From: Candidatus Bathyarchaeota archaeon
GTDB lineage: Archaea > Thermoproteota > Bathyarchaeia > Bathyarchaeales > Bathycorpusculaceae
Direction: 5' to 3'
Length of the DNA: 64,000 nt
NCBI GenBank assembly: GCA_963782525.1
Contig: CAWAKC010000003.1
Location: 96,001 to 160,000 of the forward strand
Shown here in pieces: positions 43,344 to 64,000 of this stretch (its first letter is position 1; each line of letters begins with the position of its first letter). The notes under the pieces were generated by a model. That model worked only from the letters and a program-made list of their open reading frames with translations, did not search any database and was not told the DNA's origin. Both the position numbers and the translations under genes were made by a program.

Positions 43344-43374
43344 TTAATTTAGCCTCCCAACAACTTTGGCAATA

Positions 43375-43964: not shown

Positions 43965-44054
43965 GTCAAAAAAGAATTTGTTTTCTTCCTCTGAGCTGTC
44001 TCTTAGTTTCCTGGATTATTCGGGAAACTTGAGGCATTAAAGCCACTGTTTTGC

Positions 44055-44735: not shown

Positions 44736-44747
44736 GTCTTATTCTCC

Positions 44748-45989
44748 CTAATAATTCTGCATGCGTTTCCTAGCGCCAACTACGCCTGCCATAACTGCTA
44801 AGGATAAAGCTGCAATAATGGACCCTTGCGGAATAGTAATCCAGCCTAAAGCCGTCAAAATAATAGCAGTTAATACCACTATGACAGCGGCAGCCTCACT
44901 AGTTAACTCACTAAAACACCCAGCCGCAAAAATAATAATTAAAGCCGGAATTAAAACGGCTGTTGTTACGGGGAATCCTGCGCCAAGAAAGTCTAAGCTG
45001 AAGGGGTCATGTGCTTTTGTGTATTCTCCTAAGAGGTAATGTTCATAGTAGAAGGTTCCATAGGTTGCGTGATCTATGGTTATGGTTACTTGGTAGCTTG
45101 TGGCGTTGTCTACGCTTGTCCATGTATAGCTAAAAAGGTTATCGCTTGAAAATATATGGGTGTATTCTACTGCTCCGCTTGTAGCGTTCGTAATAGTTAC
45201 GTTAACGCTGTTTGTGTTGCTAGTTAAGTCTTCATAGCTAATTGTGATTGCGCCAGTTGGGGTAAGGAAATCTCGTATGGCTGAAGTGTGAATGTACTGG
45301 TAGAGTTGTAAAGTTTCTTTAGGAAAATCTACGCCTCGCAAAGTTAATTGTACACCAGTGACAGCAGTAGCAACTAAATCGCCATAAACATTAGGCGTTA
45401 ATCCATCAGTAATAACAAGTCGGTAACGGCTGCCTGTAACTAAACCTAAAACTACGCTGTTCTGAGAATCAACAAGCCGCTTATCAATTGTTAAGTAGCT
45501 GCCAGCCCAATAAATTTGAGCTTCAATATACCGATAAGTTTTCAGCATTCCCACTTGATCCATAAAATTGATAACGTAATCTGAAGTATCAGCCCGTGAA
45601 CTAAAGAATAAGAAAAGTGGGTGATTTCCATGTGTTTGATCGTTAGAAGTTAACCAGTATTCCCTATGCGAGCTATTATAGTCAAAGCTGAAATATAGAA
45701 TTGTAGAGTTTGTTTCCCAGGAATAAGAACTGCTATGTACGCTGAAGGTTGCAACTGGAAGAATCTCATTTGCATAGTGAGCTGTAACAGTTACAGCTCC
45801 GGATAACAAAGCAGTAACATCGCTAGTGTATTTGTTATATGGACCGCTGAAAATCCATGTTTGCGTGTAAGTTATAGCTTTAACTTGTTGGGGAAAATAA
45901 GCGAAGAAAAGAGACGCAACTAATAGAACAAGCAATGTTAGCATCGCTGTTTTTTGCTTCATTATTTTTTTCTCGTTGTTTTTGCTCAT
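44748..45989 (-). CDS. Putative virion adhesin/spike: signal peptide, beta-rich ectodomain, 3 C-terminal TM helices
   Basis: ATG at 45989 just after the capsid-like gene; S/T/Y-rich domain with NxS/T sequons; hydrophobic C-terminus. Confidence 0.65.
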   Translation of the reverse strand: MSKNNEKKIMKQKTAMLTLLVLLVASLFFAYFPQQVKAITYTQTWIFSGPYNKYTSDVTALLSGAVTVTAHYANEILPVATFSVHSSSYSWETNSTILYFSFDYNSSHREYWLTSNDQTHGNHPLFLFFSSRADTSDYVINFMDQVGMLKTYRYIEAQIYWAGSYLTIDKRLVDSQNSVVLGLVTGSRYRLVITDGLTPNVYGDLVATAVTGVQLTLRGVDFPKETLQLYQYIHTSAIRDFLTPTGAITISYEDLTSNTNSVNVTITNATSGAVEYTHIFSSDNLFSYTWTSVDNATSYQVTITIDHATYGTFYYEHYLLGEYTKAHDPFSLDFLGAGFPVTTAVLIPALIIIFAAGCFSELTSEAAAVIVVLTAIILTALGWITIPQGSIIAALSLAVMAGVVGARKRMQNY

Positions 45990-45990
45990 G

Positions 45991-46263
45991 TTAGAACCCC
46001 GATTTAGAACCCAACCCAAGATAAAGCAAGACACCCATAGCGCCAACAACGATTAAGGCCACAGTGACTAAACCCATAGCAATCCAAATGTTAGTTTGAA
46101 CTGAAGTCCATGTACTGTTAGCTTTAGCGCTCCAAGTGTTGTTAGGTGTTTGACTGTTAACAAGCGCATTAACTACGATAATTCCGACTAGCAAAGAAAC
46201 CATTAAGCCAACCAACACAAAAATTATAGCTCCAACTCCCTTCTTGTTAGAAATCAATTTCAT
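45991..46263 (-). CDS. Putative major capsid protein of spindle-shaped-virus type (or pilin-like)
   Basis: 90 aa; two long hydrophobic helices joined by a loop with NNT and NST sequons; KKG-V class III-like leader; strong GAGGAGG RBS. Confidence 0.65.
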   Translation of the reverse strand: MKLISNKKGVGAIIFVLVGLMVSLLVGIIVVNALVNSQTPNNTWSAKANSTWTSVQTNIWIAMGLVTVALIVVGAMGVLLYLGLGSKSGF

Positions 46264-46318
46264 TTCTTAGTTTCCCCTCCTCTCTGTTCTTAAGGTAGCC
46301 TTTTGATTGTTGCAAACT

Positions 46319-46465
46319 TTAGTTTTGAAGTCCATCATCTTTTTTTCTTCTCCGCTTATCTAGAGGTATGTTAAACAGAGCCCTTGCAATTCTGATTAGT
46401 TCACGGTTTTCATGGTTGTTTTTTGTTACTGCTTTGCGATGCTTGTCTTTGTCTTTGTACGGCAC
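46319..46465 (-). CDS. 48-aa basic protein (not in ORF track), possible nucleoprotein
   Basis: MPYKDKDKHRKAVTKNNHENRELIRIARALFNIPLDKRRRKK; directly upstream of the capsid-like gene. Confidence 0.5.
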   Translation of the reverse strand: MPYKDKDKHRKAVTKNNHENRELIRIARALFNIPLDKRRRKKDDGLQN

Positions 46466-46729
46466 TGTTATGCCTCTAAGATATTAATATCCGATTTTAA
46501 CGTATAAGCTATTTGAAACCTGAATAAATTACAACTGCTTAAAATAATTCGGAATATATTACAAAAATTAAATTCTAATTGTTCAGATATTGGCCCCAAT
46601 TCTTTATGGAAAAAAAATTAATTAGTAATAATTAAAACAAATATGTAAAAATTACAATAAAAATGCCTTTTTTTGTAAAAAACGCAAGGTTTTTATGTCC
46701 ATGACAGTATAGCGTTAACCATTGAAAGG

Positions 46730-46927
46730 ATGATAAATATGATAGATAAACAAAAAAAGTACCCTCCTGAAGTTGTGCGAGCTGTTCAAGCCCAACTCAA
46801 AAGAGAGTACAGATTAAGAAAAAAACAAAAGGCTGAAGCAGCCCAGCGTGGTGGCCCGACTGCAACAGCCCCGCATAACCCCCCAACTACGATTAAGCAA
46901 TCAGAGGAGCTTTGCATAAATGAATAG
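46730..46927 (+). CDS. Small basic protein (provirus)
   Basis: 65 aa; first gene of the replication transcript. Confidence 0.5.
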   Translation: MINMIDKQKKYPPEVVRAVQAQLKREYRLRKKQKAEAAQRGGPTATAPHNPPTTIKQSEELCINE

Positions 46928-47083
46928 CCCAAAACCCCTTATTAGTTTTTTGCCAAAAATAGAGACGTTCTCAAAATGTTCTCAATGCCAACACTGGAGA
47001 AAAAAATGTTGTCTTCTGGGCTATACTGCAAGCGCAAATTCTAAGCCCTGTCATCAAGGCACTCTAAGGGGCAAACAAGACGC

Positions 47084-47344
47084 ATGACCTCGCAAAATTT
47101 CCTAGGGGAAGGCCCAAATAGAAACTCCAAATATTACGCAACTATCTCAAGCTGCAAATGCTGTGAATATTCAAACTGTCAACACCGACAAAAACATGGT
47201 TTCTGCATTTCTGAAAATGGAACACAAGCAACAGCCAACGAATTTAGACACGGAAACATAGGAGAACTTGAACGCCAAACTATCATTGAAACAAACCAAT
47301 GGTGCATAAACGAGCATTTAATCAATGGAGTGCCGACACAATGA
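47084..47344 (+). CDS. Cys-rich hypothetical protein (provirus)
   Basis: CKCCEYSNC...C; stop overlaps the primase ATG. Confidence 0.55.
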   Translation: MTSQNFLGEGPNRNSKYYATISSCKCCEYSNCQHRQKHGFCISENGTQATANEFRHGNIGELERQTIIETNQWCINEHLINGVPTQ

Positions 47345-49869
47345 ACGAACAGCAAGCTATACTAGTGCAGCGACTAAAAGAAGCCGAACTAAGCCTTAAC
47401 CGATTTTTTGAGGTAAAACCAGACAAAGCACCGGCAGAAGGTAAGGGTTACACAGCTCACCTTAGAACCCCTGAAGAAATGGATAAAGCTGGAGTAACAC
47501 GATGGGGAATAATGGGAGGCGACTTCTTAGTACCCATAGACACAGATATTCCAGAAATGGGTCCAATAATTAGAAAAATTTTACCCCGAACGTTTGAAAC
47601 TTTAAGCGTAGGCAGACAGCTACCACATTTCTATTTTCTTGTTTGGGGTAAAAGTGGAAAGCAACCTCCAAACGGAATATTACATATACCAAATGATTTC
47701 GATGAGAACGGAAAAAAAAGAGGAGCTGGAGAAATAAGAGTAGGTAATCAATATCTTGTTGCTCCAGGAACAGATGTTGACTATTACAACAGCAAAGGCG
47801 TTCATATCATAGGCAGATACAAAATTTTGAATGATGTACCCATAGCTAAACTTGAATACGATACCTTCATGGAAGCCTTAAAACCCTACAGATCAGAAAA
47901 CGAGAAAATATCATTGGAAGAAATGAAAACTGGAGTAGGAGCTAATTTTAGACACGCTAAAGCCATGAGCTATGCATATCATTTAATCAGCGTTACTAGG
48001 TTGGGTTACGACCTAGCATTAATGGAGCTTAACCGTTTTGGAAACGCTTGCACTCCACCGCTAATAGATCAAGATTATTTTGACAGAGCATTAAAAGCAG
48101 CAATCAATTTAGAAGCAGCAACACAAGCACGAATTGATGATAAAAAAAGAACTGTTCAAGAATGGGCTAAAATTCTATATGACGGCCAAGAATTACGAAC
48201 AGTTGAAAAAATTAAGGTTGAAGTAGAGCAAGAAGATAATCTGCCAAACTATGATTATTTCTGTCCTATCTTAGATAAGAGAGGAACAAGAGAGCCGTTT
48301 AAGCCGGCTAAAGTTGCTAAGTGGTTAAGTGAACACAGACATTTCAAAGCAGATAGAACAACCGACTTACTTTATTTCTACGATGGTCAAAGTTGGAGAG
48401 ATAACGGCGAAGTTTATTTACAAGAAATTCTCGGAAAAATTTTGGAAACAGAAAACAGACATGGCATATACACCGATGTTTTGCACGATTTAAAAGCCTT
48501 AGTTTATAATGATATAAAATTTAGCCAAAAAATTGCTTTAGAGAACGGATTATTAGACGTTGAAAGTCAAGAACTTTTACCATTTAACTTTAACGAAATG
48601 CCTTTCCACAAACTACCAATAACCTACAACAAAGACGCTAAATGCCCAAATTGGGAAGCATTCATATCTCAAGTGGTAAACTCTGATGATTTATTAACGA
48701 TCCAAGAATGGAGCGGATTCTTACTTTTACCAGATTACCGTTTCCACAAACTCTTATGGGTTCATGGTGAAGGCCGCAATGGAAAAGGCGTATGGCAAAG
48801 AACAATGGAAGCGATCCTAGGGGAAAACAATGTTTCAAGTATTGGCCTAGAAGAATTTAACGGCGGTCACCGTTTCGCATTAAGACAACTTTACGGAAAA
48901 CTCTTTAACCCATGTTCAGAACCAAACACAACTTACCCATTACAAACCCCATTATTGAAAAAAGCAACTGGACAAGACACAATAGAAGCCGAGATAAAAG
49001 GCAAACAGAACAGGTTAAAATTCAGAAACTACGCAAAAATAACGGTATTAGCTAATAAATTTCCTAAAGTGGAAGATACAACAACCGCATTCAAGGAAAG
49101 ACGTTTATTTATCAAATTCCCAAACGAATTTACCGGAACCAAACAAATACAGAACATAGAAGCTAATTGGCTAATAGTCAATGATGAAAAAAGCGGAATT
49201 CTTAATTGGATGCTCAAAGGCTTAGAACGACTCTTAACTAATGGATATTTTACCGAAAGCAAAACCCAACAAGAAACAGAAGCAGAATTTCTAAGAGCAA
49301 GCGACACAATCGGCGCTTTCCTAAAAGAAATGATAGTTTACAATAAAAACTTTGTAACAACACGAAGCGAAGCATACGAGAGCTATAAGAAATATTGCGA
49401 TACTATAGGATTAGAAGCGGAAAGCGAAAAGGCTTTTACTCAAAGATTAAAGGACACACCAAAAATTAGTGTTTGCTCAGTCAAGAAGCCTAAACAAGAA
49501 AGAGCCTGGAAAGGCATAACTTTAAAACTAATCAGCGATGACGGCGAAATTACAGAAGATAAGTCAAAAATAGACAATTTTACCCCCGAAAAAGATACAG
49601 CAGATACACAAGATACACCTATTGCACACTGTCCCACGTCTAACGATGTTACAAATAAACAAGTAGTAGAAGGTGTATCTCGTGTATCTAGTGTATCCGA
49701 AAGCGAACTTAAAGGATATACGCAGCTTGTTTGTGTTTTCTGTCAAAAAGGCATAATGGATAACGACTGGAAACAAGACGATTTTACCTGGGATAAGCCA
49801 GCTCACAAGAAATGCTATGATACTAAGAAATCAGAGTTAGCAGCTCAAGATGATAAGGAGGTTTCTTAG
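47341..49869 (+). CDS. Primase-helicase (Prim-Pol-like N-terminus plus P4/D5 SF3 helicase)
   Basis: IDTD, PHFYF, GEIR..QYLVAPG; NGLLD, HKLPITY, Walker A GEGRNGKG, ANKFP, ERRL; ATG at 47341. Confidence 0.9.
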   Translation: MNEQQAILVQRLKEAELSLNRFFEVKPDKAPAEGKGYTAHLRTPEEMDKAGVTRWGIMGGDFLVPIDTDIPEMGPIIRKILPRTFETLSVGRQLPHFYFLVWGKSGKQPPNGILHIPNDFDENGKKRGAGEIRVGNQYLVAPGTDVDYYNSKGVHIIGRYKILNDVPIAKLEYDTFMEALKPYRSENEKISLEEMKTGVGANFRHAKAMSYAYHLISVTRLGYDLALMELNRFGNACTPPLIDQDYFDRALKAAINLEAATQARIDDKKRTVQEWAKILYDGQELRTVEKIKVEVEQEDNLPNYDYFCPILDKRGTREPFKPAKVAKWLSEHRHFKADRTTDLLYFYDGQSWRDNGEVYLQEILGKILETENRHGIYTDVLHDLKALVYNDIKFSQKIALENGLLDVESQELLPFNFNEMPFHKLPITYNKDAKCPNWEAFISQVVNSDDLLTIQEWSGFLLLPDYRFHKLLWVHGEGRNGKGVWQRTMEAILGENNVSSIGLEEFNGGHRFALRQLYGKLFNPCSEPNTTYPLQTPLLKKATGQDTIEAEIKGKQNRLKFRNYAKITVLANKFPKVEDTTTAFKERRLFIKFPNEFTGTKQIQNIEANWLIVNDEKSGILNWMLKGLERLLTNGYFTESKTQQETEAEFLRASDTIGAFLKEMIVYNKNFVTTRSEAYESYKKYCDTIGLEAESEKAFTQRLKDTPKISVCSVKKPKQERAWKGITLKLISDDGEITEDKSKIDNFTPEKDTADTQDTPIAHCPTSNDVTNKQVVEGVSRVSSVSESELKGYTQLVCVFCQKGIMDNDWKQDDFTWDKPAHKKCYDTKKSELAAQDDKEVS
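49593..49698. repeat. Inverted iteron arrays (putative origin of replication)
   Basis: AGATACA(G/C) x3 with a 9-bp period, 54-bp spacer, GTGTATC(T/C) x3 with a 9-bp period. Confidence 0.75.
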
Positions 49870-51054
49870 TTGGAAGCTCCAGCCCAAACCGCTATTTTTT
49901 GCCCTGAATGCCAAAGCCCGAAGTATTTTAAGGATGGCAAACGCAAACTCTCAAACGGTGAAATAGCCCAGCGTTATATTTGCCGTGTATGTGGCTACCG
50001 CTATACATACCCATCTAGCTTAAATGCTGTCTCGGACAATTCTGAAGGTAGCCAAATAAGCGCAAAGGCGAAAAATTTGGACCCTACGCAGAAACATAAA
50101 TTCTGTGTGGGAGATGCAATAAAAGTAGATGCTGACACCAAAGGCTTGTTAACACTGTTCTATGCCTACATGGAAAAAGAAGCCTACTCCGTTGAAAGTG
50201 ACTATGTTGATAAAGTTAAGCATCTTGCTATTCGTGGAGCTAACTTAGCGGACCCTGAAAGCGTTAAAACTGTAATTGGACAAATGCACCGGAAAGATGG
50301 CAAACCAACTAAAAACGGAACTAAGATGCTTTATTGCTATGCTTATGATGCCTTCGCTAAAATGCTTAAACTTCAATGGAATATACCAAAATACACACAA
50401 GAAGATCACGATCCCTTTGTACCTGATGAAACCGAATTAGACGCATTAATTAACGCTGCAAAATCTAAGCTATTGGCCGCTTTTCTACAATGCTTAAAAG
50501 AAACGTTTGGCGATCCTGGAGAAGTACTGCGTATTCGATGGCTTGACGTTGACACCAACAACAAGAAAATAAGCATAAGTTATCCAGTGAAGAACCATCT
50601 TACTCGAACCCTGCAAGTTTCTAACCGACTGTTATCAATGATTGACGCTTTACCCAAAAAAGACGATAGAGTTTTCCCGACTTCGTACTCAAATATGCTT
50701 CACCGTTTCGTAACTATGCGTAAGAGAACCGCTGAAATTCACCAAAACCCTAGGCTATTAGCAGTTGACTTTACAGCCTTTAGAACTTGGGCTGGAACAA
50801 TGATAGCCTACCACAGCAACGGAAACGTGCTTTTAGTCCAGAAGCTACTAGGTCACAAGCAAATTAAAAACACAATGAAATATATCGGCAAAATAAATTT
50901 CCAAAACCAAGACTTTGAAACCACAAGCGCATCAACCGTTGAAGACATACTTCGATTAGGGAAAGAAGGCTGGATTGAATACTCTGTTATCAGTATTAGC
51001 AACGTAGAACACCACTGTTTCAAGAAGCCTAAGAGGTTCAGCAGCTATGTCTAA
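49870..51054 (+). CDS. Tyrosine integrase with N-terminal zinc finger
   Basis: CPEC...CRVC, KN, FR, LLGH, TMKY; next to the candidate att. Confidence 0.85.
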   Translation: MEAPAQTAIFCPECQSPKYFKDGKRKLSNGEIAQRYICRVCGYRYTYPSSLNAVSDNSEGSQISAKAKNLDPTQKHKFCVGDAIKVDADTKGLLTLFYAYMEKEAYSVESDYVDKVKHLAIRGANLADPESVKTVIGQMHRKDGKPTKNGTKMLYCYAYDAFAKMLKLQWNIPKYTQEDHDPFVPDETELDALINAAKSKLLAAFLQCLKETFGDPGEVLRIRWLDVDTNNKKISISYPVKNHLTRTLQVSNRLLSMIDALPKKDDRVFPTSYSNMLHRFVTMRKRTAEIHQNPRLLAVDFTAFRTWAGTMIAYHSNGNVLLVQKLLGHKQIKNTMKYIGKINFQNQDFETTSASTVEDILRLGKEGWIEYSVISISNVEHHCFKKPKRFSSYV

Positions 51055-51149
51055 AAGTGCAGTAGTAAGAATAAAAGACCATGTGAAAAGGAACAGAAAG
51101 GCTTTTCATCATACAGGTTCTTTAATGGTTTGGTGGGGAGAGCAAGCAC

Positions 51150-52172: not shown

Positions 52173-52486
52173 GGGCTGGCGAGTTGGTGTGTGGCTTTCG
52201 GGTCCCAAATGGGATCTGAGGAAACTCCGCCCACATGTAGAATTGCAGTCCCGTCGTTGGGACAACGCGAGAGCGTTGGCAACGGAGCAGAAACGAAACG
52301 TCCACCCAGACTTGGCGATGACACATTTGTGATGTCGAGTGTGCTGGATTGGAAACGGTGAAACGGCTGTCCTGCAAGTGGAAAGGGCAAACAGTCGCCG
52401 ATGAAGTATCTACCGGAAGGCGCGGGTAGCCCGATTAGCAGAATGCCACGATAACAGAAGGCGGGTTACTGCCAACACACCAGTCT
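52173..52486 (+). ncRNA. rnpB: RNase P RNA
   Basis: GAGGAAACTCC (CR-I), GCAGAAAC, GGTGAAACGG, AACAGAAGGCGGGTTA (CR-V); 5' GGGCTGG..GTTGG pairs with 3' CCAAC..CCAGTCT. Confidence 0.93.
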
Positions 52487-52529
52487 ATTTTACTAATACA
52501 CCAGCTTTTTGTCTACTCATTACGTTTTT

Positions 52530-53846
52530 TCGCCTTCCTAAATAGCAAAGCATCCCTGAAGCCTTCAAATCAGCCTATGAGCTCCTTGTTGCAGACCGAG
52601 GAGGCTTTGTCTACGAACCAAAAGTTGGCATACACAACAACACTGGCGAAGTTGATTCTTCATCGATGTATCCAAGCTTGATGGTTAACAACAACATCTC
52701 AGCCGAAACAGTTCTTTGCAAATGCTGCCCAGACTCGCACTTGCGAATCCCAGAGTTAAACTACAACATTTGTGAGAAACGGGTTGGGGTAGTTCCTAAA
52801 GCTTTGAAGCTGTTGTCTCTAAACGGTTGCACTACAAGAGGCTAAGAGATGAAACCGTGGACCCTAAACTTAAGGAGATGTACGATAACAGACAGAATGC
52901 TTTGAAGTGGATTTTAGTCACTTGCTTTGGGTATTTTGGCTACAGGAATGCAAAGTTCGGGACGGTGGATGGCCATATTGGTGTTTGTGCGTTTGGTAGG
53001 GATGCGTTTCTCAGGGCTGCTCGGATTTCTGAGAGTCGAGGCTTTGAAGTGCTCCACGGAATAGTGGATTCACTTTGGTTAAAAAAGGAAAACACAAATC
53101 TCGAAGAATACAAGGACCTCTGCAAACAAGTAAGCGACGACATCGGGGTTCCACTGAATTTTGAGGGACGTTACAAATTAATTGTTTTCTTGCCGTCGAA
53201 AATGCACCCAAATATTGGTGTTTTAAACCGCTACTATGGAGTTATGGAGAATGGAAAACTAAAGGTTAGAGGCTTAGAGGTACGTAAACATGACACACCC
53301 AAATTCGTCTACGATGCGCAGATGGAAATGATAAACGTGTTTTCCACGGCTAACAATTCGAAAGATTTTATGCAAAAGATTCCCGAAGCCCTTAAAGTGG
53401 TGAAAGCTTACCGGCAGAAATTACTCGACGGTGAGGTGCCTATTGGAGATTTGATTATTTCTAAGCATCTATCGAAAAACCCCAAGCACTACAAGCAACA
53501 TGTCAGTCAGGTTATCGCTGCAGAGCAACTGATTAAGGAAGGTTCAGAAGTTCATGCAGGCAGCAATGTACATTTCGTTTTTACTGACTCAAACAATAAG
53601 CGCTTTGAAAGACGAGTTAAGGCAGAACAACTCTTAGACAAGGGAGTTAACCCCGATGAACGGAAATACTTGCAACTTCTATATGAGTCAGCGGCGGGTT
53701 TGTTAAGCTTCTCCAATTATACATCTAAGATTGTTCAAAACGCAATCAGGGGATATGAGAGCAAAATCTTTTCGATTATCTTGGTGGCGCATAGTTATTA
53801 TTCGGTTGGGGACTGCGCCTTTATTCCAACTGTCCTAGAAACATGA
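52530..53846 (+). pseudogene. Family B DNA polymerase, PolB2 type, 5'-truncated and frameshifted
   Basis: Upstream frame DRGGFVYEPKVG...DSSSMYPS...NISAET; frameshift near 52812; RQNALKWILVTCFGY, HGIVDS; exonuclease half absent. Confidence 0.8.
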
Positions 53847-53949
53847 AAAAACCCATTTCAGCTTCCATACATAATTATAAATACAACATAAGAAAAAAAG
53901 GGACATGACAATTTATAAATTGTCACACATAAACGGAAGGAAAGAAAAA

Positions 53950-56643
53950 ATGAAATCAACCTTAATGAAAAGCAAAACATGTTTGCTTATTGTAATACTC
54001 CTACTGAGCATTGCTACTATGCTTCTTGTTTCGTCACCAGTTAACGCAGCCGTTACTTCCTACAACTCCTACATCTACGTTTCCGCCAGTCCCAGAGTCG
54101 CCGGTGTTGGCCAATCCGTGTTGCTTGTCGCTTGGACAGCCGACATACCGCCAGACATTGGCGAAACAGCGGGCACTATTTCGAGTCCAAGCGGTAGAGC
54201 TGGTTGGATTGGAATGGAAATCAATCTGACAAAACCAAATGGTGAATCAGTACTTCTTGATATGCCATATAGTGACCCAGTCGGCGCCAACTACATTGCC
54301 TACGTACCCGAAACCGTCGGCACATATACCATTCAAGCTATATTCCCTGAAACATGGAAAAACACCACCACAACACAAGCACTCTATCTTGCTGCAGTCA
54401 GCCCGAAAGAAACCTTCACCATACAGAACGACCCAATACAACCCTGGATTGAAACACCTCTGCCAAACAGTTATTGGACTCGTCCACTCAACAGTGCAAA
54501 TAGAGACTGGTATGTCATAGCAGGCGACTGGCTTGCTGGGGCCAGCGGTGGAGGCGGGGCAAGCATAAACACACCCTTTCTGCGACCCCAAGGCACTTAC
54601 GGTGGCGTACCCCAACAATTAGTCACAACCGCAGGTCCAACAAGCGCTCACATACTATGGACAAAGCCATATTACATGGGCGGAATCATGGATGCCAACT
54701 ATGAAACTACAGGCTACCAAACAGCCCACTACCAAGGTCTTGGCTGGACAGGCAACATAATTCTGCAGGGGAAAATCTACTACGCTCCACGCACAACGGA
54801 TCACGCGACAAATGGCTACACAGTCATTGACTTATACACTGGCGAAACATTATCTGAAGAAAACAACACCAAACCGGCATTCGGTCAAGTATACAACTAC
54901 GAATCTCCTAACCAACACGGAGGTTTTGCATATCTCTGGAGAACCTCCGGTCAAACTATAACTAATCCTGTCGGCGTCAACGGCACAGTTTGGACGGCAA
55001 TTGACCCAATGACTGGCCAAACCGTCTATAAGATAGCCAACGTATCTGCAACAGGCACCCAAGTCTACGGCATAGACGGAAGCATCTGCTACTACAACCT
55101 CGTCAACTACGGAACTGCAACATCGCCTAACTACCGGTTAACCATATGGAACAATTCGGCAATACCATCTGAATTGCTAGGCGACTCAGGAACTAACTAT
55201 TGGCAATGGAGACCAGCCACAGGCGGTAGAGGCACCCTTCTAGGGGGAGAATACGTTCACGATGGAAACAAAGGCTTCGCTGTAAACGTTTCAATACCAA
55301 CACCATACAACGATCGAAATACGCTGCTCAATGAAACAGGCACAATCCGCGCCATAAGAGAAAGTGAATTACTCGTAGTTGGAACTGCGGGAAGAAACGA
55401 TGAAAGAGGCGACGTTCAAGGCATGCTATGGGGCATTAGTCTGAGGCCAGACTCAACTTTAGGCCAACAACTATGGAAGGTAACATTCTCAGAGCCATAT
55501 GCACCAACATCAGCCAATGCAAGCAACACCCTAATTGAAGTCTTCCCAGACCAGAACGTGTTCGTCTGCGGCAACGTCCTCATGCAAGGCGGTACAAAGA
55601 CTCTCATGTACTATGGTTATGACTTGACAACTGGAAAACAGATATGGCAAGTTGGCCCTATGCCACAATTCGACTACTACACTAGCCGACTCGACAACTA
55701 CAAAGGGATGTTGTTCTTGGATCAAGGCTATGCCGGAGTATTGATGGCCTATAACCTAACGACAGGACAATCAGTTTGGAACTACACTGCTAATGACGTC
55801 GGCTTTGAATCTCCCTACGGCAACTATCCAATGGGCATTTCATGCATAGCTAAACAAAACGATGTAATCTACACCACAGGCAGTGAACACTCGCCTACCC
55901 AACCACTGTGGCGGGGCCCGAACCTACGCTGCATAAACGCAACTGACGGCACTGAAATTTGGAAAACACTATTCTGGGGAGCCAACATGGGAGCCACTGA
56001 TCCCAGCAACGTAGCGTTAGCAGACGGTATCCTCGTCGGTCTCAACTACTTCGACAGCGAAATCTATGCATTCGGAAAAGGGCCAAGTGCAACAACAGTT
56101 TCCGGACCCCTCTCAGGCGCAGCAGTGAATTCTGTTCTAACCCTTACCGGCACAGTCACCGATCAAACCACTACTGGCAGACGTACCACCAACGACAACT
56201 TCGAATTCACCCTCAAGGGCACACCAGCAATATCCGATGCAGACATGAATAGGTGGATGGAATACCTCTTTGAGCAGCAAAGCTACCCAGCAAATGCAAC
56301 AGGCGTTCCAGTTCATTTAACAACCATCGACCCCAACGGCAACATCTTCGACATTGGCACAGTTACATCTGACATCAACGGCAACTATGGCACTGCCTTC
56401 ACCCCAAGTGTTCCAGGCACCTACACGATATTTGCAACCTTTGCAGGCTCCAACGCTTATGGGCCGTCGACAGCTTCAACATACATCGCAGTAGCAGATG
56501 CCCCAACAGTGACTCAGGCACCAACAACGTCCCAGCCAGTATCGCTCGTTGAAACCTACTTCTTCCCAGCCATCGCAGCCTTGTTCATATTTGTTGCCAT
56601 AATGAGTGTAGTAATAATCCTGCTGACTCGGAAGCGCCCATAA
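53950..56643 (+). CDS. Secreted PQQ-binding-like beta-propeller protein (third paralog)
   Basis: Signal peptide, YWTRP, YESPNQHGG, EHSP, WMEYL, TM plus RKR tail. Confidence 0.85.
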   Translation: MKSTLMKSKTCLLIVILLLSIATMLLVSSPVNAAVTSYNSYIYVSASPRVAGVGQSVLLVAWTADIPPDIGETAGTISSPSGRAGWIGMEINLTKPNGESVLLDMPYSDPVGANYIAYVPETVGTYTIQAIFPETWKNTTTTQALYLAAVSPKETFTIQNDPIQPWIETPLPNSYWTRPLNSANRDWYVIAGDWLAGASGGGGASINTPFLRPQGTYGGVPQQLVTTAGPTSAHILWTKPYYMGGIMDANYETTGYQTAHYQGLGWTGNIILQGKIYYAPRTTDHATNGYTVIDLYTGETLSEENNTKPAFGQVYNYESPNQHGGFAYLWRTSGQTITNPVGVNGTVWTAIDPMTGQTVYKIANVSATGTQVYGIDGSICYYNLVNYGTATSPNYRLTIWNNSAIPSELLGDSGTNYWQWRPATGGRGTLLGGEYVHDGNKGFAVNVSIPTPYNDRNTLLNETGTIRAIRESELLVVGTAGRNDERGDVQGMLWGISLRPDSTLGQQLWKVTFSEPYAPTSANASNTLIEVFPDQNVFVCGNVLMQGGTKTLMYYGYDLTTGKQIWQVGPMPQFDYYTSRLDNYKGMLFLDQGYAGVLMAYNLTTGQSVWNYTANDVGFESPYGNYPMGISCIAKQNDVIYTTGSEHSPTQPLWRGPNLRCINATDGTEIWKTLFWGANMGATDPSNVALADGILVGLNYFDSEIYAFGKGPSATTVSGPLSGAAVNSVLTLTGTVTDQTTTGRRTTNDNFEFTLKGTPAISDADMNRWMEYLFEQQSYPANATGVPVHLTTIDPNGNIFDIGTVTSDINGNYGTAFTPSVPGTYTIFATFAGSNAYGPSTASTYIAVADAPTVTQAPTTSQPVSLVETYFFPAIAALFIFVAIMSVVIILLTRKRP

Positions 56644-57101
56644 AGAACAGCCGCATCCAAAACCAACTTCCTTTTTATTTTTTTTTAAATTCTAATTAAA
56701 GCCATTTCTCTTTGGAGATAAGGGGGTGATGCCTTGACTTCACTAAAATGGTTTAGAAACAAAGCGAACCATCCCTCAGAATACAAATTGACTGCTGGCA
56801 CTGGGCCTTAGCTTCATTAGCTTACTTGCTGCAAAGGAGCTTAGGGAATACTTAAGGTTTTAGCGATTGACACAATAATAATTATCACCTTCAGCCTTGA
56901 TTAGATGCGTGTATACCATTGTCGAGTTTATGTTTCTGTGACCTAATCTTTCTTGCACGTGCAGAAGGACGTTTGTCTTAGCATAACAAACCTATATTAT
57001 GAATACAAGAAAAGAGTTAAACCATAACGCATCGATATAGTCTATACAAGGGAGAACTAACGCAAGAAAACACAAAAGACAATTATTCACTCCAAAACGC
57101 A

Positions 57102-57605
57102 GTGAATAAACTAGCAATAATACTCAAACTCATTTTCGAAGATAACCCGGACATTTTCTTAAAAAAACCCGAAGAAGTCAGCTTGGACTTACTAAATAAT
57201 TTTTCTAACTCATTTCTTTCAATTTCAACACTATTTCAAGAAGTTATTGAAGAATGGTTTGGTTCTAGTCCAGAAGTGGTTGAAGCCATTAACAGGTCTG
57301 AAGAATTGGGAGACCAACTTGAAATTGAAGTAAGCGAGAATGATAAACTGGACTTTGAGCAAATAAGAAAAATCATGAATAGAATGAATAAAATCGACGA
57401 AGCTTTAGGCAACTTAGAGAAGATATCGCTTTATCTGAAATATTACGAAGATTTATGCAAACAAAAAGGTCTTACTAATAATGCCAACTTATCAGAAATT
57501 TTCAGAGTCTATGGTGCTGAAGAATTTACGAAAAATCTAAGAAATGAGATAAACCATCATAAAAATCAAATAGAGAGAAATAACATGTATAATCGAGCCA
57601 ACTAA
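57102..57605 (+). CDS. Hypothetical helical protein
   Basis: 167-aa AT-rich ORF. Confidence 0.5.
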   Translation: MNKLAIILKLIFEDNPDIFLKKPEEVSLDLLNNFSNSFLSISTLFQEVIEEWFGSSPEVVEAINRSEELGDQLEIEVSENDKLDFEQIRKIMNRMNKIDEALGNLEKISLYLKYYEDLCKQKGLTNNANLSEIFRVYGAEEFTKNLRNEINHHKNQIERNNMYNRAN

Positions 57606-57992
57606 ACACAAAGACATTGAAAATAGCCACAAAATCATTGAAAATAGCTTATGCGGCGTTGGTTATCTCCGTTTTGTTTACAATTTTCACGTTATTAGAT
57701 TTGCTCTTGAAATATATCGTGCGCTAAATGTTTCTAAACCTTTTTGGATCTTAAAAATGAGCACTTGAACCAAAAATCTGACGTACATTAAAACAACTGC
57801 GGTCAAAAGTACAATCTCAAGCAAAAACACCTCAGGCAAGTGCACATATCCCCTAAAGGGCACCCTTCTCTCAAGCAAGGACTCTATCTTGCAACATTTC
57901 AACTAAAAGCAAGAAATCTTTAAGCGATCTGCCCAAACCAAAATGAATAGGAAAGACAAAGCATATATTTAGAATAAACTCACATAATATAG

Positions 57993-58289
57993 GTGAAGTT
58001 TTTGATTGATATTGAAGAAATTATGGGGTTACAGGTAGTGACTTCAGGTGCACGTATTCTTGGAGAAGTTAAAGGAGCAAAAATTGATCCCGCGACTTGG
58101 GCGATTAAGTTCTTGAACGTGAAGCTTACTGGCGATGCTGCTGAGAGTTTTGGAATGAAGAAGAGGTTTGCGAGTTCCAAAATATGTGTTCCAGTTAGCA
58201 TGGTTCAAGCAGTTGCGCATGTGGTGACGCTTTCTGTGTCTATGGAAGAGTTAGAAAGCTCTCAAGAAATCGCAGAGTGCAAAGACTAA
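57993..58289 (+). CDS. PRC-barrel domain protein
   Basis: IMGLQVVTSGARILGEVKGAKIDPATWAI...VPVSMVQAVAHVVTL. Confidence 0.8.
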   Translation: MKFLIDIEEIMGLQVVTSGARILGEVKGAKIDPATWAIKFLNVKLTGDAAESFGMKKRFASSKICVPVSMVQAVAHVVTLSVSMEELESSQEIAECKD

Positions 58290-58550
58290 AAAACGCAATA
58301 CGCCTTTAGGGATTCAGTGAATAGTTGAATAGTATTGATTGAGTCCTAATTTTTTCTTTTTTTCTTTTGTCAATTAGATGGCTGCATGTGAAAAACAGAG
58401 GAAATAGATGTAACTTTGCGTGCGCCCAAACCATCTGTTACCGTTGAAATCATTGGTGAATTTAAAACCCGCTTAAGTTATCCTAATCTTACCAAAGAAG
58501 CACTAATTACTTCTTGAAGGTTTATTAAACTATAAGATAGTTAATGTCGC

Positions 58551-58961
58551 ATGAAAAAATCTACAATAATAATACTTGCGGTGGTTGTTTCTGCAGTCAT
58601 TGTTGTATCAGTTGTTGGTGCAGCTTTACTCTCAGGAATGTTTGGAGCAGTCTTTAACGCAACTGAGTCTCCTCAAATCAAAGAAGCTTCAATTGCAACA
58701 AATTTTGGTGGCGGATATAGTCTAGAAGCAGGAGCATTTGCACTGGAAGGCGCCGCTCAAAACCTTGGGCAAAAAGACGCAAAAAACGTTAGAGTAGATA
58801 TCACTTTCTTTAACGCTGATACTCAGCAGGAATTAAAGACACAAACAATCTCTTTTGGAGATATTGCAGCAGGAAACTCAAAAAACATTAACCTTTCCGT
58901 TGAATTTCCAAGCGATTCAGTGCGTGTTACTTTTACAGCAGCCGACCCAGTATGGGAATAA
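58551..58961 (+). CDS. Membrane-anchored Ig-like (FxLYD/CARDB-like) protein
   Basis: N-terminal TM; G...N.G...AKNVRVDITFFNAD...GDIAAG. Confidence 0.65.
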   Translation: MKKSTIIILAVVVSAVIVVSVVGAALLSGMFGAVFNATESPQIKEASIATNFGGGYSLEAGAFALEGAAQNLGQKDAKNVRVDITFFNADTQQELKTQTISFGDIAAGNSKNINLSVEFPSDSVRVTFTAADPVWE

Positions 58962-59231
58962 ATTGAGTTTTACTTTACTTTTTTTCTCTTTTAAGTTTTA
59001 TTATCTATCGCTCGACTAAAACAGATTGAGGTATTGAACAGTAATTTACAAAATTAGGGTTTGCGAAAACCCATAAAATCGATGAGTGAGAATATAAAAG
59101 CTTATAACTAGACAGCAACAATAAGAAATTAGGGACAAGTCGTGAGTAAAGAAACAAGTAAAAAATTACTAAGCCCAAAGGCGGGTTACTGCCAACACAC
59201 CAGCCCACGTATTCAACAGAAGGCGTCTGAA

Positions 59232-59430
59232 GTGACAGAAAACAGCTCTTCTATTATATACGCCAATTCTTAAGCTTTGGAATATTGGAAAAAGGAATTA
59301 GCAAACCGAGACAGCAAAACGGCTTTCCGTTATCTCCAATACCTCAAAGGTTTCGTAGAATACATGGGAAAGACACCCATCAAATCTTAGCCCAACGAGA
59401 ATTGGATTTAAGAAGCTTAAACAAACAAGT
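59232..59430 (+). pseudogene. Integrase N-terminal remnant
   Basis: MTENSSSIIYANS*ALEYWKKELANRDSKTAFRYLQYLKGFVEYMGKTP / QILAQRELDLRS resembles archaeal integrase core-binding domains; contains a stop and a frameshift. Confidence 0.55.
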
Positions 59431-60074
59431 GCAGCTTGATAGTATCTGTAAAGAAATCAATTTCACGCTATTGGCTTATAGGAAATTAAGATTTAATGAG
59501 CTGCTCAGAACATTGAAAAAATTCGCTGTAAAGATAACCCAACCAACACTAAAGCTACATCTGAACCATTTAATTTACAAAGGATTAGTTGAAAGAAAAG
59601 AGGAAGGCTCCCAAAATGTCAGTTACAGCCTGATAAAAGAAATTGATAACTTGATGCATGTTCTGCCAGAAGAAGTTAGGAAATGGTTTGACGCAGAACT
59701 ATTGCGTGAAGATATACCAGAAGAACTAAGAGCAAAGAAAATATCTCGTTAAGAGATTTTCAAGCACTACAGTACAGAATAATTAGACAAAAAAGTTATT
59801 GTTGATTTAAGCAATGTTCTGAGCTTAAATTTGTATGAACTAATGTCCTACATCGAGTATGACTTGAAGATAGACGAGTTTCAAAATGATTCCGATTTTT
59901 GGAACTTTGCAGGAGATCTTCTTTATCGTCAGCAAAAAAATATATAGTCGACAAATGCCGCGCCAGAGAAGAGTACAAAGAGCTGCTCTTTGAGAAAATA
60001 GAGCTATTAACCGAGGAGCTTAGAAGCGATAAAGAATTGCTCAGAAAAAGAGGGAGGCGATCTGGAGAAATTAA
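59430..60074 (+). pseudogene. Degraded winged-helix protein gene
   Basis: LRFNELLRTL...ITQPTLKLHLNHLIYKGLVER; broken continuation downstream. Confidence 0.5.
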
Positions 60075-60285
60075 GAACAACAAGAAAAGCCGTCAGGGAG
60101 TGGCATCGCTCCCGACTCCTTCTTGCCTTCACTCATCGTTCAGGTAATTCACCCACCGTCTCTAAGGAATCATAGAATAGACAATAGCTCCCCCTTTGAC
60201 CCCTAAATCCTCTTTTCAGCCGTCGTAGAAAAAGAGGACTTGGGATTCGAAGAAAAGTTAATGTGTGGGACAGCTTGCATGATAT

Positions 60286-60753
60286 TTGTGTGATATTTTG
60301 ACTAATAATGTACTCGAAGCAGTCCACAAAGTAGAGCTTGAAAAATATTTAGGCAAATGGTATGAGATTGCACATCTTCCCGCTAAATTCCAAGAAGGTT
60401 GCAATGAAACGACAGCAACTTACACTTTATTAGATAATGGCGTTATTTCTGTTCTGAACGAGTGCAAAAAGAACGGCAAAATGAAACTGGCAAAGGGAAA
60501 AGCAAAAGTTGTTGACAAAACGACTAATGCGAAACTCAAAGTGACATTTTTCTGGCCGTTTTATGGTGACTATTGGATAATAAAATTAGGGGATGACTAC
60601 AGTTATGCCGTTGTTGGTACACCAAACCGTAAGTATCTTTGGATATTGAGCAGAACACGTCAAATGGATGATAAGCTTTTTTCAGAATTAGTAGATTTCG
60701 TAAAGTCAAAAGGCTTCAACGTCGAAAACCTAATAAAAACTGTTCACAGTTAA
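60286..60753 (+). CDS. blc: Lipocalin (Blc family), no lipoprotein signal
   Basis: KYLGKWYEIA, KLKVTFFWPFYGDYWII, YLWILSR. Confidence 0.88.
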   Translation: MCDILTNNVLEAVHKVELEKYLGKWYEIAHLPAKFQEGCNETTATYTLLDNGVISVLNECKKNGKMKLAKGKAKVVDKTTNAKLKVTFFWPFYGDYWIIKLGDDYSYAVVGTPNRKYLWILSRTRQMDDKLFSELVDFVKSKGFNVENLIKTVHS

Positions 60754-61030
60754 CCAGCCAAAGATTGACCTAAGAAACTGGCGATGAGAAAGACACATCA
60801 GTAGGGTATATATCCCTAAAGGGTACCTCCTCGCAAACAGGGACTCTGTCTTTCAATAAGCAGATATTTAAGATAAAATTTGTTATCAGGCATAAAATGG
60901 TTATGGCTTGAAAATTACTAGAAGTGATAGCTTGGTCGATTCGGGAGACATAAGTTAAGACTCGAGCTAAAGAGAATTATTGGTGCTTCTGAAAAAGATG
61001 TTCAGGGCAAATATTTGTCCCTAGAAGTAA

Positions 61031-61459
61031 TTATGAAAGATTGAAATCAGAGCGACCAAGAGCTGCAAGTACTTGTTCAGTTACAGTTTTTTTTCCGAGA
61101 TGTCGAACAATATCGGCGCCGACAATTATTCCAGTTATTTTATTCTGCTCCAAAACGGGCAGTCGTCTAACCTTATTACTTGCCATCAAGGAAGCTGCCT
61201 CTTTAATTAAAGCATCAGAATTGACGGTAATAACAGGGTTAGACATTACTTCTGAGACTTTAGTGTCCAAGGGTAGTTTTTCCGCAACAACCCTTCTGAC
61301 GAAATCTCTTTCTGTAACTATTCCAGCAAGCTTTTCGCCTTCAATAACTACCACGCAACCTATATGATGGGAAGTCATAAGCTGTGCTGCTTCAAAAATG
61401 CTATGATCTACACTGATGGAAACGACGTGCCATGTCATAATATCTTTTACCGTTGACAT
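61031..61459 (-). CDS. CBS-pair protein
   Basis: VKDIMT...GIVTERDF...VSEVMS...RRLPV. Confidence 0.9.
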   Translation of the reverse strand: MSTVKDIMTWHVVSISVDHSIFEAAQLMTSHHIGCVVVIEGEKLAGIVTERDFVRRVVAEKLPLDTKVSEVMSNPVITVNSDALIKEAASLMASNKVRRLPVLEQNKITGIIVGADIVRHLGKKTVTEQVLAALGRSDFNLS

Positions 61460-61889
61460 AATATTATTTTGGTAAAGTGACTTAAATAAGTTTTCAAAAT
61501 TAAATTTTATGTCATCATTTAAATAAATTTCATTATGTCATTAAATAATTAACGAAATAAATTTGGAAACTGGAATAACAAACAGAATGAAGATTATGAC
61601 TATCCGAGTCTGTGTATCTGTTTCTTGTAAAAGTTATTCGCCTAAAAGCTTATAACTAGAAAGCAACTATGAGAAAGCAGGGATCAAAATGAGTGAGGAT
61701 AGTGAAAAATTACTAAGTCCAAAGGCGAGTTATTCCATACTCCTCAGCCTAATATTAAACAGTGAGAAACAATGCAAATTGTCGGATAATGGATTGAAAT
61801 AAAAAAAGTTTTTTGCATTTTCGATGTTTTAGCTTCATAGTATTTCCTTAATAAGAAGTTTCTTTTTGACTTATTTTGATGCATTGAAA

Positions 61890-62474: not shown

Positions 62475-62923
62475 CCCATATAACTGGTAGATGTTTTTTA
62501 CGACTTAGCCCAAATTTTACCGGTATCTTGGTTCTTTTCTTTTCGGACATAGATATTTCTATCATCGCTAACTCTTTTGGTTCCTTTTTAAGTTTTATGC
62601 ATTATTTCTTTTATTCTAACTAATCGTAAAGATTGTTGTCGTTAAGCTTCTATTCTAAAATAACCTTGGTTGTTGCTAATGTCATAAGAAACATTGGGAC
62701 ATTACAGCGATACCTTTTTGGGCTTCGCGCAAGTTGTTTATTATAAGGTTTAACTCCCGTAAACCCTCCTGACGTTTTCCAGTTTTAAAGAAAAACTTGG
62801 CTAATCTAGCAACAACCATTTACTACCCCAAATTAAAGTTATTTATTTTTAATTTAACCTTTTGTAAATCTTTATTGTAAGAGGGGGCTGCGAAAAACAT
62901 GGCTGAGGATTATTTATTATATT

Positions 62924-63946
62924 TAGACGTGTGCGCAATTCATTTTTTATAGTTCCGATAGGTAAGTTATCTTTGAGCAAGTCTGGGATCGTACCCGTAA
63001 ATACCATTGATTTGGTGTCTTTGAGGGCTCCATGATCATTTGTTGTTGGGTCAAGCCCAGTACTTGCTTACCGTTTTTAGACTTTGCTCGCCAACAATAA
63101 GCGATCGTATTGCTTCAGCATCATAACTAATCAAGCCAGCCATCACCATAGCCGCCTTCTTCACCAAACCCTTAGGCCTCACCCAGCAATTCCTCAAAAC
63201 GTTAGCTTTAAGATGCCCATTAAACTGCTCAACCACATAACGCTTAGTCTCCAAGAGTCTAGCATGTTTGATTCTTTTGCGTTTTCCCCTTCTAGGATTA
63301 GGAGCAATAACAGGCTCAGCTTCAATGCCCTTGGCTGCTCTTTTGTTTGTTTTCGAGTCATAACCCGCATCGGCCAAAACGTATTCTGCTTCCAAATCCT
63401 CAATGAGACCGGGAAGAAAAGGCGAGTCATAACGATTACCAGGCGTAACAACTGCTCTCAACGGCAACCCCAGCTGATTTACCGCTGCATGAAGCTTGAA
63501 ACCTCTGAATTTTCCACGGCTCGTGTGACCCCAGCCCGCTTCCATATCGTAGAGATCCACTAACGGCGTTGAGTCAACAATTAGAATAGTGGTCGGTGTC
63601 ACTAGTTGAAGCATAGCCGATATCTTCTTAAAAGTTTCTTCAAGAACGTCAAGATAGCGTCTCCACCATCTTCCAACAGTGGTTCTATTGGGTACTTTGA
63701 ATAAACCAAGTGTTCTAGCAACGTCCGTATGCTTCTTTAGATGTTCAATTACACGTGTGTCGTTCTCTAATCCTTTCAGTCTGGCATAAACGAGAACTCT
63801 TAGTGCTCTTAGGCGTCCGTAGCCTGGATTTCCGCGTCTTTTGGGTTCTACAGAAACGATTGCTTTGTTGACGAAAAGCCTGACAACTTCACAGGCTTCC
63901 ATACTAGAACATAATTGGGAAGCAGCTTAAATTCTGCACACCCCTA
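62924..63946 (-). mobile_element. Insertion sequence (DDE_Tnp_1, IS5/IS982-like), about 1.02 kb
   Basis: Imperfect TIRs TAGACGTGTGCGCAATT / TAGGGGTGTGCAGAATT; flanking TTATATT duplication (62917-62923, 63947-63953). Confidence 0.85.
63051..63902 (-). CDS. DDE transposase
   Basis: IVDST, GFKLH, ADAGYDS, RYVVEQFNGHLK. Confidence 0.92.
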   Translation of the reverse strand: MEACEVVRLFVNKAIVSVEPKRRGNPGYGRLRALRVLVYARLKGLENDTRVIEHLKKHTDVARTLGLFKVPNRTTVGRWWRRYLDVLEETFKKISAMLQLVTPTTILIVDSTPLVDLYDMEAGWGHTSRGKFRGFKLHAAVNQLGLPLRAVVTPGNRYDSPFLPGLIEDLEAEYVLADAGYDSKTNKRAAKGIEAEPVIAPNPRRGKRKRIKHARLLETKRYVVEQFNGHLKANVLRNCWVRPKGLVKKAAMVMAGLISYDAEAIRSLIVGEQSLKTVSKYWA

Positions 63947-63956
63947 TTATATTGTT

Positions 63957-64000
63957 TAGACGTGTGCGCAATTCATTTTTTATAGTTCCGATAGGTAAGT
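63957..64000. mobile_element. End of a second copy of the same IS (cut by the window edge)
   Basis: 63955-64000 is identical to 62922-62967. Confidence 0.7.

Follow-up and report, generated by a model that had tools for sequence, protein, structure and literature searches.

We analysed a 64-kb window (64,000 nucleotides (nt), positions 96,001 to 160,000 of contig CAWAKC010000003.1) from the metagenome-assembled genome of a Candidatus Bathyarchaeota archaeon, in which the gene of the RNase P RNA, rnpB, is followed on the same strand by two displaced copies of its own 3′ end. Each displaced copy is preceded by a homologous stretch of DNA, the arm, and remnants of tyrosine integrases lie beside the gene and around the first displaced copy. 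The gene itself was identified with Infernal. The archaeal model RF00373 (RNaseP_arch) matched 52179-52480 of the forward strand with 180 bits, compared to a gathering score of 84, and the match covered the full model (positions 1-288), in agreement with the gene call of an initial annotation that had been made from the letters of this DNA. No tRNA gene was found in the window. The features on which the analysis is built are the following; the cargo genes are listed in the last section.

52173-52486, + strand: rnpB, the gene of the RNase P RNA, with helix P1 extended by 6 bp past the Rfam model (RF00373 and pairing)
52458-52483, + strand: core of the candidate left attachment site (attL), the final 26 nt of rnpB (3′ strands of P4 and P1, CR-V); exact repeat of 59178-59203
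52484-52551, − strand: arm of a second element class, with the last 12 codons ALLFRKAKKRNE and the stop (52513-52551) of a convergent zinc-ribbon tyrosine integrase (arm shared with relatives)
59095-59177, + strand: arm 1, putative integrase promoter TAAAAGCTTATAACTAGA (59095-59112) and N-terminal integrase part, int(N), with GTG at 59142 and 12 codons ending in SKETSKKLLSP (homologous arms)
59142-59434, + strand: integrase remnant through copy 2, about 70 of about 395 codons (translation, similarity to protein P0104)
59178-59206, + strand: copy 2, displaced rnpB 3′ end, exact 26-nt core and native CCC (repeat, CCC of the relatives)
61643-61721, + strand: arm 2, same promoter word (61643-61660) and int(N), ATG at 61689, MSEDSEKLLSP (arm homology, frame)
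61722-61749, + strand: copy 3, decayed displaced core (18/26) followed by CC; putative terminal right attachment site (attR) with no integrase behind it (arm homology)

The 3′ end of rnpB and its displaced copies

According to the Rfam alignment, the last 26 nt of rnpB correspond to model positions ~263-288. They comprise CR-V, which forms the 3′ strand of helix P4, and the 3′ strand of P1. Helix P1 is extended by six further pairs between 5′ GGGCTGG (52173-52179) and 3′ CCAGTCT (52480-52486), and this pairing is kept in the 17 same-genus loci, with one compensatory change from C-G to U-A in locus L044. The 26-nt sequence AAGGCGGGTTACTGCCAACACACCAG is present exactly at 52458-52483 and at 59178-59203, as the initial annotation had noted. 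Two matches were obtained in none of 100 shuffles, and no other exact copy exists in the 2.87-Mb genome.

The two copies differ in the letters that follow. Copy 2 continues with CCC and the gene with TCT, again as first described, so that GGGCTGG forms seven Watson-Crick pairs with the CCAGCCC at the end of copy 2, whereas the CCAGTCT at the present gene end allows five Watson-Crick and two G-U pairs. CCC is also the commonest continuation after the core in relatives (18 of 29 rnpB loci with downstream sequence). Copy 2 therefore looks like a former native end of rnpB, and the G-U pairs that now close P1 suggest that the element, and not the host, supplies the end of the gene in this genome. 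Because the attachment site overlaps P4, which is part of the catalytic core of the ribozyme, every integration must rebuild an essential RNA exactly.

Copy 3 keeps 18 of the 26 bases of the rnpB end (61722-61747). It is identified by its arm, which aligns with the arm of copy 2 over 126 nt at 76% identity (E 4e-16 in a comparison with the whole genome); both exact words that the initial annotation had quoted from the two arms are present. Downstream of copy 3 no integrase match was found, nor was a further decayed core (up to 10 mismatches) between 61750 and 66000. The arms share the identical 18-mer TAAAAGCTTATAACTAGA, ~30 nt upstream of an integrase start, which resembles a B recognition element with a TATA box (BRE/TATA-like) and may be the integrase promoter. 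At copy 2 an open frame starts with GTG at 59142, enters the core in phase after 12 codons, and reads SKETSKKLLSP and then KAGYCQHTSP through the core. At copy 3 the frame starts with ATG at 61689, 11 codons before the core, and reads MSEDSEKLLSP and then KASY. The arm thus consists of the putative integrase promoter and the N-terminal codons, with the attachment (att) core lying inside the integrase gene, a split like that of the Sulfolobus spindle-shaped viruses (SSV).

The frame that starts in arm 1 could be followed beyond copy 2. It runs from the GTG at 59142 through the core to 59390, with one in-frame TAA (59271-59273), and then, after a frameshift near 59380, to 59434. Behind the core it continues as ALEYWKKELANRDSKTAFRYLQYLKGFVEYMGKTP, which is 80% identical to residues 2-52 of the tyrosine integrase P0104 of 395 amino acids (aa), and past the frameshift residues 54-71 of the same protein are matched with 72% identity. 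The remnant is fused in frame to a winged-helix open reading frame (ORF), position 59381 being in the frame of ORF 59285-59752. The initial annotation had let the remnant begin about 30 nt after copy 2; instead, it starts 36 nt before this copy. No intact integrase of the family to which the remnant belongs (family A, see below) was found anywhere in the genome of the window, G000. The integrases of the rnpB islands in the window are all dead remnants, and the islands are decayed and captured.

These repeats, frames and remnants were read directly from the assembled DNA, and we therefore considered whether the repeat could be an artefact of assembly or binning of a metagenome-assembled genome. 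The genome consists of 12 contigs, with 95.8% completeness and 2.7% contamination, and in relative G023 one contig ends at the 3′ end of rnpB, which would both fit such an artefact. Against it stands the finding of the same architecture in many independent assemblies, including the single-contig genomes G003 and G014. In addition, short contigs of the public runs X1 and X2 agree with the window letter for letter at 59134-59363 and 59139-59352, respectively, which makes a misassembly at 59178 unlikely, although these runs possibly come from the source sample and by themselves lend weak support. Four public runs of one study hold 15-30% of the sampled words, and the contigs made from them are short and shallow. 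No joint that removes an island was present in these contigs; the only joint skips 60241-60842 in run X3, with 63 other letters in between. Taken together, we regard an artefact as very improbable.

Integrases at rnpB in related genomes

We examined 41 genomes of the genus and order, 34 of which had a match to RF00373, and in 17 genomes of the same genus (18 loci) we compared up to 20 kb of sequence surrounding rnpB. A displaced copy was defined by each genome's own last 26 nt, with up to 6 mismatches. Eight of the 16 same-genus relatives with a full rnpB carry displaced 3′ copies downstream of the gene on the same strand, and none was found on the opposite strand in the 16 loci. G002, G003 and G008 have two displaced copies each, and a ninth relative, G019, has a 40-nt rnpB fragment (blastn). 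In six relatives (G023, G001, G002, G021, G003 and G008) the displaced core is preceded by the same arm, with AAATTACTAAG in it. The content downstream of rnpB differs among all relatives, and in 8 of 29 loci of relatives, integrase sequence of any kind is found no more than 150 nt from the 3′ end of rnpB.

In two of these genomes the integrase is intact. The frame AAG GCG GGT TAC leads out of rnpB without interruption for 417 aa in G008 and 318 aa in G003, and both products match PF00589 (Phage_integrase), while G019 (115 aa), G021 and G010 have broken integrase frames. At the far ends, in-frame starts precede six displaced cores of the relatives. Among them are MKK before KAGY in G008, MTETTIEIITTEPTKERTI and MSKETSKKLLRL before KAGY in G003, and MSEETSSKKLLRL before KTGY in G021. 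With integrase frames leaving rnpB at one end and in-frame starts at the other, joining the ends would rebuild a complete integrase gene, which is the layout of a split, or 'suicidal', integrase. The scan of relatives thus brought to light both 3′ duplications and intact integrases, as would be expected from the proposal of the initial annotation that an archaeal element family targets rnpB; the relatives do not share one arrangement after rnpB that is free of integrase-linked duplications. We also attempted to place the crossover by comparing attL and attR in G021, G003 and G008, but the host-specific bases are alike on both sides and the point could not be placed within the core.

The integrase of G008 represents family A; used as query, it found 262 proteins at E ≤1e-10 among 8000 candidates scored. 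Many of the predicted N-termini are the translated 3′ end of rnpB, in three different frames (KAGYxQHTSP, KGGLxPTxQP and RRRVTxNTPA). In a collection of species representatives, rnpB ends where the integrase begins in all nine loci that hold a homologue of it, one of them the query's own. On metagenome contigs rnpB sequence adjoins the integrase in 34 of 71 loci; 32 of these have the rnpB gene, whole or cut at the contig edge, and two have only a piece of 35 or 87 nt. Across 28 aligned members, the catalytic residues (R, K, HxxR, H and Y) show little or no variation. Pfam matches of the family are confined to PF00589 and a weak SAM-like N-terminal domain. PF16795 (Phage_integr_3) gave no family A match at E ≤10, in a search in which the HMMER filters drop most matches above ~0.1. 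Among sequences of solved structures (PDB), XerA and XerD are the best relatives, and no SSV1 integrase is among the hits at E ≤1. When phage and plasmid records were searched with tblastn, only distant matches below 28% identity were obtained, the best archaeal one being the psiM100 integrase with 23.8%.

Does the core really lie within the coding sequence of these integrases? It could be argued that they are classical enzymes that do not split, with the true start after the core and the core in a 5′ untranslated or promoter region. The open frame would then be incidental, and the stretch from core to body would hold repeated integrase-binding sites rather than codons. This would account for L077 and L074, where the frame is closed and the core is followed, after ~85 nt, by an ATG and a GGAGG-like word. 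L077 has the core without rnpB and then the integrase, which may be an attP-like arrangement or a tandem join. It would also fit that gene callers begin many family members right before the conserved ALxYW motif, and that the spacer contains short direct repeats resembling parts of the core in L014, L022 and L026. However, a recognisable core lies upstream of the integrase in 42 loci overall, and in 36 of these no stop interrupts the integrase frame between the core and the conserved body, compared to 10 and 4 for the two control frames, which indicates that continuity of the frame is selected. Moreover, in-frame starts lie 3-20 codons upstream of displaced cores at copy 3 of the window, in G021, twice in G003 and in G008, and the N-terminal peptide SKKLLSP is conserved across genomes. 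We therefore consider the classical arrangement an unlikely explanation for the family as a whole, and the split of the integrase gene the better one.

A second lineage of integrases became visible at the gene itself. The sequence right after rnpB in the window, YCTATTTTACTAA and TCTATTTTACTAA, is common to three relatives (G012, G015 and G014). In G015 a whole but frameshifted integrase with an N-terminal zinc ribbon comes next on the opposite strand and ends ~35 nt from rnpB. Remnants of this integrase are the last 140 codons in G014, ~16 in G012 and 12 in the window. The zinc-ribbon lineage has the unsplit, classical arrangement, convergent with rnpB. The enzyme of G003 belongs to a further family, B, and a 47% identical relative of it adjoins rnpB in G030, a member of another family of the order. 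By this comparison, at least two integrase lineages, and three across the order, seem to use the rnpB site.

In the other 37 metagenome loci of family A rnpB was absent; many of these are cut short. For the 15 with enough upstream sequence, in which blastn had detected no rnpB, Rfam (E ≤0.001) likewise identified neither rnpB nor a tRNA. About 18 of the 37 (L090-L114) form a sister clade with another N-terminal peptide, which contains L/I-Y-K-G-A-F-G in place of the rnpB-derived one. This clade presumably uses another target, and its YKGAFG peptide is probably the translation of another att site.

The intact G008 gene has a peculiarity of its own. In L039 (oriented 1768-3033) rnpB contains an ATG, as part of GAATGCC, that shares the reading frame of the integrase and gives an ORF of 422 codons. 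The database protein P0002 was called from the equivalent ATG inside rnpB, and other hosts have no in-frame ATG there. The ATG in rnpB of G008 may be due to chance. A bolder and less likely extension of the wider proposal on family A given below is that in some hosts, such as G008, the 'dead' integrase could be translated from read-through transcripts of the RNase P RNA.

Probable serial integration at rnpB and its relation to known systems

We interpret the 3′ end of rnpB as an integrase attachment site and the window as a series of decayed islands left by serial integration, with a main integrase family that splits its own gene; we put the probability of this reading at roughly 0.88. In this scheme an incoming circular element would recombine its own copy of the site with rnpB. 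The gene would keep a working 3′ end, now with element DNA behind it, and the old 3′ end would be pushed to the far side of the element. For family A, the element's copy of the site would lie inside the 5′ part of the integrase gene, so that integration would split the gene. The catalytic part would end up fused to rnpB, and the promoter with 3-20 N-terminal codons would come to lie beside the displaced fragment.

Applied to the window, the simplest reading is three integrations and several deletions. The first event would be the integration of a family A element, with arm 2 and copy 3 as its traces. Another element of family A, integrating into the gene, would have left arm 1 and copy 2, and these together with the catalytic part of the first element would have formed a hybrid integrase gene, of which the 70-codon remnant is left. 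A third element, with the convergent and unsplit zinc-ribbon integrase, would then have brought in the present flank beginning with TCT. Subsequent deletions would have removed this integrase except for its last 12 codons, together with everything up to a DNA polymerase pseudogene. The initial annotation had suggested that integration took place at least twice. Multiple integration is upheld, and the number rises to at least three events.

Could a single integration have produced the same arrangement, with copies 2 and 3 and their arms arising by internal duplication or homologous recombination within one composite island? In favour of this, the two arms are homologous, and the islands are heavily rearranged, with the polymerase pseudogene fused to the integrase tail and the integrase remnant fused to the winged-helix ORF. 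The arms are only 76% identical, though, and the core of copy 2 is perfect while that of copy 3 is reduced to 18 of 26 matching bases; the two thus point to different ages or sources. Moreover, the flank right after rnpB stems from a different integrase lineage, and G003 and G008, too, have two displaced copies whose arms differ. We thus hold a single integration to be improbable, and serial integration remains our explanation of the window.

Several observations weigh against this interpretation. The integrase frame is closed in 6 of the 42 family A loci with a core, and in four of these (L074, L077, L096 and L103) it opens only after the core, so that part of the family is unsplit and the split is not universal. 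Copy 3 on its own is at chance level, as five other sites of the genome have 6-7 mismatches to the core, but its homologous arm sets it apart. No replication or virion hallmark was found by Pfam among the cargo genes, and the viral contigs that were scanned with the G008 integrase contained no relative. To the right of the variable region, synteny with G023 resumes only at ~65126, past the end of the window. The order and number of events given above is one of several possible histories. Finally, no clean empty site with two-sided synteny was present among the relatives, and neither a free circular element nor a demonstrably empty site in a close relative was found; the recombination itself is therefore inferred, as are the order of events and the promoter.

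Integration into the 3′ ends of tRNA and transfer-messenger RNA (tmRNA) genes, with tandem islands as a result, is the general picture for elements of this kind. In the available text of a 2021 review of archaeal tyrosine recombinases, archaeal integrative elements are described as targeting tRNA genes, some protein-coding genes and intergenic sites, and the terms 'RNase P' and 'rnpB' have no occurrences (PMC8371274). As with insertion at tRNA and tmRNA genes, described in the same text, the RNA 3′ end is duplicated here, the element restores the gene, the integrase adjoins it and serial arrays are formed (PMC8371274). In contrast to those genes, where the T-arm or the acceptor stem is used, the core consists of the 3′ strands of P4 and P1 of a ribozyme. 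A recently reported parallel in terms of target is the phage phiEf11, which according to the available part of a 2025 paper integrates into ffs (4.5S RNA) of Enterococcus faecalis with a 27-nt core (PMC12540744). It likewise uses a structural RNA gene other than a tRNA as host attachment site (attB), but it is a bacterial phage that targets another RNA gene with an unsplit integrase. The RNA genes given as known targets in the introduction of that paper, in its available text, are tRNA/tmRNA and csRNA, without mention of rnpB (PMC12540744).

Regarding the integrase, the layout of family A is that of the SSV-type (type I) integrases of SSV1/SSV2, pTN3 and pT26-2, in which, as the review has it in its available part, the core lies inside the integrase gene, the gene is split into int(N) and int(C), and the att site is translated; integrated copies of SSV-type elements also decay and have their genes captured, as here (PMC8371274). 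The same text presents self-splitting integrases as confined to archaea, characterised by PF16795, with a suggested single origin, and tied to hyperthermophiles (PMC8371274). Family A differs in that the target is rnpB and not a tRNA gene, that PF16795 is not matched and the nearest solved sequences are XerA and XerD, and that some members are unsplit. Its hosts are Bathyarchaeia of soil, sediment and peat metagenomes, in contrast to the hyperthermophiles of the review in the part available (PMC8371274). The zinc-ribbon lineage, with a zinc ribbon and PF00589, ends ~30 nt after rnpB and leaves its gene whole on integration; in gene layout it can be likened to the classical pNOB8-type (type II) archaeal integrases, from which it differs by targeting rnpB.

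In the full-text literature that we could search, we found no report of rnpB as an attachment site; subscription journals and supplements lie outside this coverage, and island catalogues may hold cases. Papers that pair 'rnpB' or 'RNase P RNA gene' with integrase, in their available text, do so only in annotation lists or when using the gene as a phylogeny marker. Insertion by a tyrosine integrase at the 3′ ends of stable RNA genes is a known kind of mechanism, as is the SSV-like splitting of the integrase. What is new within the searchable literature is the gene that is targeted, the family of integrases and the group of hosts. More broadly, family A could be a self-splitting lineage that is independent of SSV, pTN3 and pT26-2, derived from Xer-like recombinases, resident in non-thermophilic Bathyarchaeia and directed at rnpB, with hundreds of copies in metagenomes and the region downstream of rnpB as a main gene-capture zone of these genomes. 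We give this wider proposal even odds.

A ribozyme gene used as attB extends the rule of conserved stable-RNA 3′ ends to a new class of genes. In addition, the region downstream of rnpB is an annotation landmark for islands in Bathyarchaeia, a very abundant uncultured group. A self-splitting layout in an Xer-like family of mesophiles also bears on the claim that suicidal integrases have a single, hyperthermophile origin.

Cargo, borders and further observations

The genes carried between rnpB and the two displaced copies, beginning with the pseudogene that follows rnpB, are as follows. The island 1 cargo proper spans 53905-58961 on the + strand.

52534-53846, + strand: family B DNA polymerase (PolB) pseudogene, C-terminal part only, one frameshift near 52800-52830 (PF00136, E 6e-21)
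53905-56643, + strand: island 1, secreted or anchored protein of 912 aa (ORF)
57102-57605, + strand: island 1, protein of 167 aa (ORF)
57993-58289, + strand: island 1, weak PRC-barrel match (18.1 bits, below the cut-off of 21.2)
58551-58961, + strand: island 1, membrane protein of 136 aa (ORF)
59285-59752, + strand: island 2, HxlR-like winged-helix ORF (PF01638)
60286-60753, + strand: island 2, lipocalin (PF08212)
61031-61459, − strand: island 2, CBS-pair protein (PF00571)

The PolB pseudogene, read in two frames, is 85-90% identical at the aa level to residues 347-754 of a 766-aa PolB in G010. The Pfam matches in the island 1 cargo are weak, with PQQ_2 barely over its cut-off. Downstream of rnpB, the PRC gene has homologues in G012, G001 and G002, and the lipocalin in G010, G019 and G001. 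When compared to G010, 53108-56877 of the window matches L033:5749-9519, ~4 kb downstream of rnpB, with 97.7% identity, and the flank upstream of rnpB is 95.1% identical between the two genomes. These values indicate that at least part of island 1 is older than the species split and has been inherited vertically since then, which amounts to gene capture.

Between the islands and ~65126, the region contains a methyltransferase-like gene and two tandem copies of an insertion sequence (IS). The IS is 1033 nt long, and its copies extend from 62914 to 64000 and on to ~64980 in the contig, with a DDE transposase at 63051-63902 (PF01609). Its ends, of 54 nt, are found at both 62914 and 63947, and the end sequence occurs once more near 64900-64980. 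The doubling is either a tandem IS pair or an effect of the assembly.

A solitary fourth arm, MSKEISKKLLSP, in which the rnpB core is reduced to its first 12 nt, is present on contig C6 at 101600-101708 (L129:9601-9709, minus strand). No RNA gene was found near it and no integrase within 27 kb, and its neighbours are ordinary host genes.

Some relatives showed unusual arrangements of rnpB itself. G020 (L045 and L046) yielded no complete rnpB; model parts 1-23 and 181-305 are joined in one piece of 150 nt, and a different contig carries two fragments of the 3′ end, 90 and 37 nt long. The G020 fragments may be displaced pieces, with the true gene unassembled. In G023 (contigs C4 and C13) one contig ends two bases past the rnpB 3′ end, and a second one repeats the gene and enters an island. 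The assembly break right at the att site hints at strain variation there. In L051, a contig end in a Bathyarchaeota genome record, two rnpB genes (176-473, + strand, and 2861-3161, − strand) are inverted around one integrase, and a long perfect hairpin at 1599-1711 matches microRNA models. This looks like a fold-back at the contig end or a real inversion between rnpB-linked elements.

Elsewhere in the window, another tyrosine recombinase at 25242-26423 (− strand) is 27% identical to the rnpB-targeting family (tblastn). In addition, a second recurrent integration site lies 1.1 kb from rnpB, where an 11.2-kb insert (39874-51095), bounded by the direct repeat GAAAGGCTTT, sits between a zinc-ribbon gene and a 119-aa gene upstream of rnpB. 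It encodes a primase/D5-type helicase (47299-49869), a 394-aa zinc-ribbon tyrosine integrase (49870-51054) and a second recombinase-like ORF (41643-42410). The insert is not at this place in G010 and G023, and remnants of its integrase are present at the same place in G003, G015 and G021.

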